From Patescibacteria group bacterium (GTDB lineage: Bacteria; Patescibacteriota; Patescibacteriia; Patescibacteriales; UBA12465), in contig JBAYIC010000005.1 in the NCBI GenBank assembly GCA_041665845.1, positions 6,047 to 70,046 of the forward strand: DNA of 64,000 nucleotides, in the 5' to 3' direction. Below are positions 27,943-28,020 of this stretch, piece after piece. A program made the translations under genes and the position numbers. Under the pieces are notes generated by a model that was not told the DNA's origin, made no database searches, and saw only the letters and a program-made list of their open reading frames with translations. How positions within the stretch are numbered: position 1 is the stretch's first letter; each line of letters opens with the position of its first letter.

Positions 27943-28020
27943 GATGTGGACCCGCGGGGAATCGAACCCCGGAAACCGAGTGCTAAGTCCGGTTTCGGAG
28001 GCCACTCCCGGGCCCACATC
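27943..28020 (-). ncRNA. non-canonical tRNA-like cloverleaf RNA (not a standard decoding tRNA by hand fold)
   Basis: Minus strand: GATGTGGGCCCG / GGAG-TGGC-CTCC / GAAACCGG-ACTTAGCAC-TCGGTTTC / CGGGG-TTCGATT-CCCCG / CGGGTCCACATC. The T arm is canonical. The closing stem is 12 bp, there are no junction nucleotides, the D loop is 4 nt and the anticodon-like loop is 9 nt. Confidence 0.55.

Follow-up and report, generated by a model that had tools for sequence, protein, structure and literature searches.

A compact alanine-tRNA-like RNA and its co-evolving antisense partner in Patescibacteria and other bacteria

To our knowledge, only few tRNA mimics are described in bacteria (the tRNA-like domain of transfer-messenger RNA (tmRNA), YrlA and some leaders), and none of them has its own co-evolving antisense RNA. 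Here we report on a tRNA-like RNA of 69 nt and a small RNA (sRNA) encoded just downstream of it, both on the minus strand of a 64,000-nucleotide stretch from a Patescibacteria group bacterium (GenBank assembly GCA_041665845.1, contig JBAYIC010000005.1, positions 6,047 to 70,046), called the window in the following. Coordinates are those of the window and, unless stated otherwise, of its minus strand; related loci carry L numbers. The cloverleaf of the window is real and belongs to a widespread and, as it seems, undescribed family of compact RNAs that resemble alanine tRNA. Its nearest counterparts in architecture are mascRNA and the tRNA-like domain of tmRNA; in logic they are RNA-RNA antagonist pairs and the antisense RNAs that RNase P processes in P1 and P4.

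MascRNA and menRNA (RF01684) are small tRNA-like RNAs which arise by cleavage from the 3' ends of two vertebrate long non-coding RNAs, MALAT1 and NEAT1. They resemble the RNA described here in their compact cloverleaf, in which a 7-bp acceptor, a canonical T arm and two small hairpins (a tiny D hairpin whose loop contains GG and a short one resembling an anticodon arm) abut without linkers, and they give the best structural match in Rfam. They differ in being eukaryotic and released from a long nuclear transcript, in having no G3:U70 requirement and in lacking a dedicated antisense partner. MascRNA is a substrate of RNase P, RNase Z and the CCA-adding enzyme, and pairing of its leader and trailer has been reported (PMC8457004). 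The tmRNA tRNA-like domain (RF00023) shares with the present family the alanine-type acceptor (G3:U70, A73), the canonical T arm and a reduced D region. As in tmRNA, alanine identity is independent of the anticodon, so that the remainder of the molecule can evolve freely. The family RNA, however, has neither an mRNA-like domain nor pseudoknots, and a closed anticodon-like hairpin replaces helix P2.

The C4 RNA of P1/P7 and the CI RNA of P4 (RF01695) are antisense immunity RNAs of phages and satellites; they are small, stable and structured, with tRNA-type processing, and they reside on elements with AlpA-type regulators and primases. The logic they share with the family is RNase P-type processing and a pairing with an adjacent complement that starts at a loop, both presumed in our case. 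They lack a T arm and an alanine-type acceptor, and the mRNA with which they pair is part of their own transcript, whereas the partner here is a separate short sRNA in any orientation. Two non-coding RNAs that are each other's main partners are found among sRNA sponges made from tRNA precursors, such as 3'ETS-leuZ (with RyhB/RybB), and among pairs of an RNA toxin and an RNA antitoxin, such as the type VIII pair SdsR/RyeA. Such RNA-RNA antagonist pairs resemble the present one in their adjacent genes, extensive pairing and patchy, partly mobile distribution. In 3'ETS-leuZ, however, a spacer pairs and not the tRNA body, and we know of no RNA toxin or sponge that is a self-standing tRNA mimic with aminoacylation signals. 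The bacterial Y RNA-like YrlA is likewise a non-coding RNA with a tRNA-like module; this module has a T arm and a D-loop/T-loop elbow and is recognised by tRNA enzymes. YrlA differs in being longer, in its Ro/Rsr-binding stem and in being encoded beside rsr; at the family loci, neither a YrlA match in Rfam nor an rsr neighbour was seen.

Structure and affiliation of the tRNA-like RNA

For the primary transcript, a core of 78 nt (28020..27943) is predicted that reads GAUGU-GGGCCCG-GGAG-UGGC-CUCC-GAAACCGG-ACUUAGCAC-UCGGUUUC-CGGGG-UUCGAUU-CCCCG-CGGGUCC-A-CAUC and is made up of a 5-nt leader (GAUGU), the tRNA-like RNA and the trailer CAUC. The tRNA-like core itself, 69 nt from G1 to A73 (28015..27947), is supported by a pattern match, by the covariance model R1, by covariation and by sub-threshold alignments to the tmRNA tRNA-like domain and to mascRNA. 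It is composed of an acceptor of 7 bp (28015..28009 with 27954..27948, GGGCCCG/CGGGUCC) that contains G3:U70, an abutting D-like hairpin of 4 bp (28008..27997, GGAG-UGGC-CUCC), a variable 'anticodon' arm of 8 bp with the 9-nt loop ACUUAGCAC (27996..27972), the canonical T arm CGGGG-UUCGAUU-CCCCG (27971..27955) and the discriminator A73 (27947). The whole 78-nt stretch had a folding energy of −44.9 kcal/mol (z = −5.2 against shuffles), and none of 200 shuffles was as stable.

A sequence-only reading of the window had described the four helices and the extended −10 element TGTTATAAT at 28036..28028, and the sequence is identical to this description. It had regarded the outermost pairs as a single 12-bp closing stem. 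The pairing holds but the reading does not: a normal 7-bp acceptor is lengthened to 12 bp by a 5-bp helix between leader and trailer (GAUGU/ACAUC, A73 included). Both sub-threshold alignments indeed set the 7-bp acceptor at GGGCCCG/CGGGUCC. The leader/trailer helix is restricted to the Falkowbacteria-type clade, with one compensatory change from A-U to G-C in L110. It had further been claimed that everything but the T arm breaks tRNA rules. This is correct for the abutting helices, the 4-nt D loop and the arm of 8 bp with its 9-nt loop, but not for the acceptor, which is canonical, nor for the D loop, which keeps its GG.

The extended −10 element places the predicted start at or next to G28020, and a TATAAT-type box lies at the same distance before GAUGU or GGUGU in L065, L066, L067, L105 and L110. 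This promoter has no good −35 element and was missed by a simple promoter scan. The terminator scan placed the terminator of the upstream gene for a 212-aa protein at 28081..28102; it insulates the RNA module, which argues that the tRNA-like RNA has its own promoter. The proposal of a dedicated, promoter-driven tRNA-like small RNA is thus supported by the missing tRNA call, by a conserved and covarying family and by a −10 box kept at the same distance.

When the window was searched with ARAGORN and with Rfam 15 at gathering thresholds, only the canonical tRNA-Gln at 5857-5928 was called. The two checks proposed along with the sequence-only reading therefore gave no standard tRNA at the locus (ARAGORN) and left it below all family thresholds (Infernal with Rfam). 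The best permissive Rfam alignments were those to the tmRNA tRNA-like domain (31 bits, E = 1.3e-10) and to mascRNA (31.9 bits, E = 2e-4). The window locus was not detected as a canonical tRNA (RF00005, gathering threshold 29 bits), and ARAGORN called no family member at all; a single relative, L099 (1349-1417), passed the Rfam tRNA threshold with 37 bits. Some of the RF00005 geometry is absent: there is no U8/N9, no N26 and no variable region, the D loop has 4 nt and not 7-11, and the anticodon arm has an 8-bp stem and a 9-nt loop as compared to 5 bp and 7 nt. The ends of the molecule do conform, with the 7-bp acceptor, the discriminator base, a 5-bp T stem with a TΨC-type loop and the GG of the D loop. 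For tmRNA (RF00023, at least 47 bits required), the 31 bits came from the ends of the tRNA-like domain only, with 25 nt replacing 328, and ARAGORN found no tmRNA in the window. The mascRNA/menRNA score of 31.9 bits compares to a threshold of 42.5 bits, and the RNA has a bacterial context and its own promoter. C4/CI antisense RNA (RF01695) gave no match at E up to 10, and the partner here is a separate sRNA on either strand. Rfam 15 thus holds no family that matches the tRNA-like RNA, and literature searches, which were not exhaustive, gave no description of the RNA pair.

G3:U70 and A73 together form the alanine identity set, which is present in the window copy. With the 7-bp acceptor, the sequence features of a substrate for alanyl-tRNA synthetase (AlaRS) are seen in the window and in two copies that were not selected by the search patterns, which makes the RNA a candidate substrate. 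CCA is encoded in 12 of 47 relatives, the window copy not being one of them.

Relatives and antisense partner

Relatives were collected with three degenerate pattern scans, covering viral contigs, species-representative genomes and metagenomes. The relaxed pattern gave 61 matches in the viral contigs, from which L015, L032 and four members with a GGGGGCG acceptor belong to the family; the narrowed pattern of the shared architecture gave 15 loci in species-representative genomes and 36 in metagenomes. The approximately 50 relatives in total come from Patescibacteria, Planctomycetota, Actinomycetota-like and other bacteria and from viral contigs. They include Candidatus Falkowbacteria (L065, L066, L067), Paceibacterota (L064), Peribacteria and Gracilibacteria (L071, L072, L075), metagenome-assembled genomes (MAGs) of Actinomycetota (L069, L077), Planctomycetota with the isolate Aeoliella straminimaris (L076), Desulfomonilaceae (L073) and a gammaproteobacterial MAG (L070). 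The window and the Falkowbacteria loci have a common synteny (HU, SIMPL and TerC genes) and near-identical flanks, which assigns the window to the Falkowbacteria. BLAST of the locus against phage and plasmid collections gave no matches, and exact look-ups of the flanking HU and 212-aa proteins led to short contigs only.

Covariation was evaluated in a MAFFT alignment of 43 distinct members. Positions G1-C5, G68-A73 and the T loop were fixed by the search patterns, so that the patterns partly dictated the acceptor ends and the T loop, but not the GG of the D loop, CCA or the covarying pairs. Pairs that were not fixed covaried in the acceptor (6:66, GC22/CG10/UA8), in the D stem (11:18, 12:17) and in the T stem (48:64, 49:63). 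The covariation score was 0.427 as compared to 0.133 in shuffles (0/500) and to at most 0.176 with partners slid. The hairpins are consequently not random, as the sequence-only reading had held, and the relatives show both conservation and covariation, the lack of which it had named, together with the lack of a transcript, as a ground for dismissal. Although its sequences are unrelated, the variable arm of nearly every member folds into a hairpin. Its loop is usually an anticodon-like one of 7 nt with U33 (CUUGCGA, CUUGACA, CUUAGCA), and some members carry the alanine anticodon UGC. In the Falkowbacteria-type loci the 'anticodon' is UAG, UGA or UAA, and such changes between close relatives do not fit decoding, in agreement with the earlier view that this is not a decoding tRNA.

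Several features on which the pattern had no bearing fit a true tRNA-type end and elbow: 12 of 47 loci have CCA immediately behind A73 (P about 7e-12), position −1 is U in 25 of 47 loci and G only once, and the D loop is YGGY in 34 of 47. Covariance model R1 scored the members at 53-78 bits and the window copy at 78.5 bits, its sole match in the window. It also found two copies that the patterns had not selected, in L083 (1872-1939) and L099 (1433-1501), both with G3:U70 and A73.

Some further tRNA-like genes were also observed. The L099 copy at 1433-1501 (minus strand) is a distinct gene (GGGGAGC.../...GCCCUCCA, G3:U70, A73) located 16 nt upstream of the member at 1349-1417. Viral contigs contain a separate tRNA-like family, e.g. 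GGGAGCGGTTTGCTAAACCGTCGATTCACGAAAGTGGGTCCGTGGGTTCGAATCCCAC..TCCA, of 66 nt (L009, L013, L014, L018, L023, L029, L039, L040, L044, L046, L061) or 65 nt (L003, L025, L045), with a first hairpin of 6 bp, a second hairpin with a GAAA tetraloop, a canonical T arm and a GGG...UCCA acceptor, and entirely without an anticodon loop. Phage genes resembling tRNA-Ala(UGC), 71-72 nt long, have G in place of U at position 8 and an unusual D arm (GGGCAnGGGCACCC); they occur in L005-L008, L011, L017, L021, L024, L026, L031, L033, L042, L048, L050, L058, L062 and L063.

The sequence-only reading pictured a single RNA and overlooked the gene of a cognate antisense sRNA just downstream. This gene lies 66 nt downstream of the tRNA-like gene on the same strand. 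The promoter scan detected its promoter at 27916..27888 (TTGACC-17 nt-TATAAT with an upstream TG); it agrees with the consensus at 11 of 12 positions, as compared to an extended −10 element alone for the tRNA-like RNA. The predicted sRNA of about 70 nt (27881..27810) is composed of a 5' seed, a CCAUUUC motif, an A-rich spacer and an intrinsic terminator. The seed (27880..27858) is complementary to positions 17-39 of the tRNA-like RNA (27999..27977), and the CCAUUUC motif (27856..27850) to GGAGUGG of the D arm (p = 0.000). The terminator, a hairpin with a U-run at 27833..27810, would also stop read-through from the tRNA-like promoter. Neither inspection of the sequence nor the terminator scan gave a terminator between the two RNA genes of the window, and a read-through transcript is predicted to fold into a long-range helix between arm and seed. 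Seed and scaffold are each single-copy in the 64-kb window, and no third target of the seed was found there.

In the relatives the position of the partner varies. Most Falkowbacteria-type loci and L079, L083, L090, L091, L096 and L110 have it downstream on the same strand, L105 has it upstream and L067 on both sides (sRNA, tRNA-like gene, sRNA), and it is convergent on the opposite strand, 35-56 nt off, in L071, L072, L075, L076, L077, L078, L084, L085, L100, L101 and L103. The layout TTGAC-17/18-TGnTATAAT before the seed recurs in L065, L066, L067 (twice), L105, L110, L083 (twice), L090 and L091. In every partnered locus, the seed starts 6-9 nt past the −10 box and is followed, in the orientation of the sRNA, by a hairpin with a U-run.

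The complementarity of the sRNA 5' end to the D and anticodon arms is strand-specific, co-evolving and independent of gene orientation, and at least 24 pairs show a locus-specific match with compensatory changes. In the window, seed and arm form an inverted repeat of 23 nt at 91% with 17 exact positions; the exact 17-mer compares to a maximum of 11 in shuffles (0/2000). Five loci each had a locus-specific complement of 13-17 nt exact (0/2000 shuffles each), giving a diagonal swap matrix, and an ungapped scan tolerating G-U, with the arms of other loci as control, found significant partners in about 24 loci (z = 3.3-8.3). The intermolecular helix of the Falkowbacteria-type loci (tRNA-like positions 17-39 with sRNA positions 2-24) was paired to 88%, and to at most 42% when slid. 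Both sides had changed in 11 of its 23 pairs, including positions 29, 32 and 33; these sit in the hairpin loop, so that intramolecular constraints cannot explain their covariation. Over 24 RNA pairs, the non-Watson-Crick positions comprised 24 G·U and 5 A·C (p = 5e-4), which indicates selection on pairing of these very transcripts and not on DNA repeats. Depending on the lineage the repeat is inverted or direct, and the transcripts are complementary in all of them. The sRNA body was complementary to the lineage-specific D hairpin as well, in 11 of 15 pairs (p at most 0.012). The predicted duplexes cover positions ~8-40 with −33 to −64 kcal/mol (−52 kcal/mol for the window pair), and in them the sRNA touches the mimic at both the D loop and the anticodon-like loop. 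Two complete modules, separated by 740 nt on a single contig, are present in L083; they form orthogonal pairs, with cognate duplexes of −32.4 and −32.8 kcal/mol as compared to −18.6 and −16.8 kcal/mol for the crossed ones. Among close relatives about 30% of the seed positions vary, against a constant scaffold.

Two observations concern the vicinity of the sRNA gene. Open reading frames of 93 aa (27738..28019) and, on the plus strand, of 71 aa (27771..27986) span both RNA genes; the former could be mis-called as a protein by an annotation pipeline, and its 'homologues' in L066 and L067 exist only because the RNA sequences are conserved. A bidirectional terminator hairpin of 13 bp (27746..27779) separates the sRNA from the convergent HU gene (27416..27697) and is kept in L065, L066 and L067.

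Antagonist, decoy or odd tRNA

Judging from these sequences, we lean slightly towards a two-RNA module in which the sRNA would be the dedicated antagonist, as antidote or regulator, that unfolds a compact mimic derived from tRNA-Ala. What we infer in this frame concerns processing, charging, the direction of regulation and the cellular role. The first RNA, probably descended from tRNA-Ala, has kept the features that tRNA enzymes recognise (7-bp acceptor, G3:U70, A73, canonical T loop and a GG D loop capable of forming an elbow) and shed those needed for decoding. RNase P may cut at G1, and after trimming behind A73, CCA would be added and alanine possibly be charged. The 5' end of the sRNA is antisense to positions ~8-40, a stretch that takes in the D hairpin together with the variable arm's 5' strand and loop. 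Pairing would probably begin at the anticodon-like loop and spread to a duplex of 20-30 bp, unfolding the core of the cloverleaf, sparing the minihelix of acceptor and T arm and offering a likely RNase III substrate. Read-through from the first promoter would give a precursor with the same helix in cis. We regard the sRNA as the antagonist because the mimic is the conserved partner and sometimes stands alone, the bodies of the sRNAs are specific to lineages and the sRNA gene has the stronger promoter. This near-consensus promoter and the patchy distribution with carriage on mobile elements are antidote-like features as well; the promoter is at most an indirect hint at a harmful effector and a less stable antidote. 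Adjacent genes, extensive pairing and cognate specificity are features of RNA-antitoxin-type modules (type I/III/VIII logic) that can be read from the sequences, and the logic of the module resembles that of an RNA antitoxin or of an sRNA/sponge pair.

A further step, which we can propose only tentatively and which on present sequence grounds seems rather less probable than not, would be an all-RNA effector/antidote system. An alanine-chargeable mimic would engage AlaRS, RNase P, EF-Tu or the ribosome, the antisense sRNA would restrain it, and mobile elements would spread the pair for addiction, immunity or defence.

Several points weigh against this picture. The minimum-energy fold of the isolated 78-mer is a rod or a Y shape and not a cloverleaf, for which reason the cloverleaf was judged by comparison with relatives. 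The invariance of G1-C5, G68-A73 and the T loop carries no weight, having been imposed by the patterns, and the independent test of G3:U70 rests on two copies only (L083b, L099b). About 22 members, mostly on high-GC contigs, have no detectable partner within 3.5 kb, which means that the sRNA is not universal or is encoded elsewhere. Expression, processing and charging are predicted for all members, and the toxicity of the mimic and its target are both putative. The mimic could equally act as a sponge for the sRNA, and in integrative-element loci the leader of the AlpA/primase operon, to which the sRNA is perfectly antisense in cis, is a potential main target.

The last two points lead to the most serious rival, which we hold to be unlikely and still worth keeping in mind: roles may be reversed, the sRNA being a regulator with another primary target and the tRNA mimic a stable decoy or sponge with an arm that copies this target, setting a threshold for the activity of the sRNA. 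In the integrative elements, this target would be the AlpA/primase leader, and the system an RNA switch for immunity or induction like P4 CI or P1 C4. Indeed, the convergent sRNA gene overlaps the region upstream of the Shine-Dalgarno sequence and ATG of an HTH_17/AlpA-type gene, followed by a primase gene, in seven loci (L077, L078, L084, L085, L100, L101, L103), and the tRNA-like arm is a near copy of the AlpA-operon leader. The P4 layout is seqA-seqB-seqC, which the order of sRNA, tRNA-like gene and sRNA in L067 recalls. However, complementarity to a leader is automatic for any gene upstream of another, and the Patescibacteria loci offer no mRNA to regulate, the sRNA gene facing HU, rpsR or nothing. 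The seed was found nowhere else in the 64-kb window, and the Rfam C4 model gave no match. A divergence of the seeds of ~30% with a constant scaffold is also easier to understand if the partner arm is their only constraint.

An odd decoding tRNA, charged with alanine, reading non-alanine codons in mistranslation or suppression and gated by the sRNA, is quite improbable and contradicted by specific results. The alanine-type acceptor, the 7-nt anticodon-like loops with U33, some UGC anticodons and the score of L099 above the Rfam tRNA threshold would speak for it. Yet ARAGORN calls no member as a tRNA, and the lack of U8, position 26 and a variable region, the 4-nt D loop and the anticodon stem of 8-9 bp make up a geometry unfit for the ribosome. 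The 'anticodon' moreover varies freely among close relatives and covaries with the sRNA and not with codon usage.

Less probable still is a split or minimal tmRNA-like rescue system with the alanine-charged mimic as tRNA-like domain and the sRNA as tag message. Although the best Rfam resemblance is to the tmRNA tRNA-like domain (31 bits) with G3:U70 and A73, and the intermolecular helix would occupy the place of tmRNA helix P2, this is contradicted by a score below the 47-bit gathering threshold, by the lack of any tmRNA call by ARAGORN and by a complete anticodon-like arm where SmpB would need to bind. The phyla with family members normally have an ordinary tmRNA, which counts against it as well. 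As to a tag message, inspection of the sRNAs gave no conserved reading frame or stop, many being just seed and terminator. A decaying tRNA-Ala pseudogene or a DNA-level repeat (attachment site, terminal repeat) devoid of RNA function, as might be suspected from the mobile elements and IS1595 copies near many members and from tRNA-type genes being common integration targets, is equally far-fetched and contradicted by compensatory changes in all helices across phyla, conserved promoters and terminators, transcripts that are always complementary whether the repeat is inverted or direct, 24 G·U against 5 A·C, and an IS1595 unit that excludes the RNA.

Genomic setting and significance

No protein neighbour is common to different phyla, and the surroundings of the module therefore give no lead by guilt of association. 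In Patescibacteria the module is chromosomal and adjoins HU, rpsR, rsmA or rpoC; that of the window is a stable chromosomal locus of a Falkowbacteria-type genome. Beyond the candidate phyla radiation it resides on small integrative elements; in the planctomycete-type loci these are compact, with the order HTH_17/AlpA-type gene, tRNA-like gene, convergent sRNA, AlpA-type gene, Toprim/DUF3987 primase and tyrosine integrase. Viral contigs (L015, L032) carry family members too, and the distribution is patchy and partly borne by mobile elements.

An IS1595 transposase gene lies within 0.01-2.2 kb of the tRNA-like gene in nine mostly high-GC loci (L068, L087, L088, L089, L098, L102, L106, L108, L112). 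These transposases are 30-41% identical between groups, several end just past the 3' end of the tRNA-like gene, and most of the loci flanked by them have no partner sRNA. As a protein partner of the RNA, IS1595 was rejected since the conserved IS unit of ~1 kb starts after the RNA gene at variable distance or is 0.8 kb off. Its proximity could reflect an insertion-site preference near the RNA gene or a coincidence of regions rich in mobile elements. Three loci that have diverged elsewhere share a block of ~110 nt with 79-83% identity, located 0.8-1.3 kb before the tRNA-like gene at about −1284..−1175 from the gene start in L088, −864..−755 in L106 and −886..−775 in L087. In L101, at about 130-240 nt past the tRNA-like gene, at least six tandem 19-nt units (GGAAAAGGTGTCAGGTTGC) extend to the contig end, just after the start of the AlpA-type gene.

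Upstream of the window module are the genes of the 212-aa protein (28314..28952) and of a 92-aa protein (29142..29420), neither with a Pfam match. The latter adjoins the module in four Falkowbacteria-type loci and has a motif resembling a helix-turn-helix (SVSEAADLGGVQGKTIRRAL); a relation to HTH_17 was considered and dropped (hhalign probability 2.6%, not significant). The −35 region of the window's tRNA-like promoter is occupied by the motif TTTAGATTTAGTTTATTT (28049..28058, minus-strand TAGATTTAGT), as is that of L066, upstream of its −10 box; in the window the motif recurs ~200 nt upstream, after the 212-aa gene (28250..28259). TTTAGATTTAGTTTATTT could be an operator or a footprint of the insertion of the 212-aa gene, which is absent from L066 and L105.

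In conclusion, tRNA finders and Rfam overlook a recurrent class of tRNA-derived genes, notably in genomes of the candidate phyla radiation. The family is compact, easily synthesised, present in at least one cultured isolate, and carries signals that can be tested (RNase P site, G3:U70, CCA). There is a substantial chance that it represents a new class of all-RNA effector/antidote module. If the mimic is indeed charged and switched off by its partner, this would be a new coupling of the tRNA machinery to RNA-based control and provide a ready-made set of orthogonal RNA-RNA pairs. It would possibly also be a new RNA-only addiction or immunity module on mobile elements, and thereby a new class of toxin-antitoxin-like systems built from two non-coding RNAs, with a tRNA mimic as the toxin.

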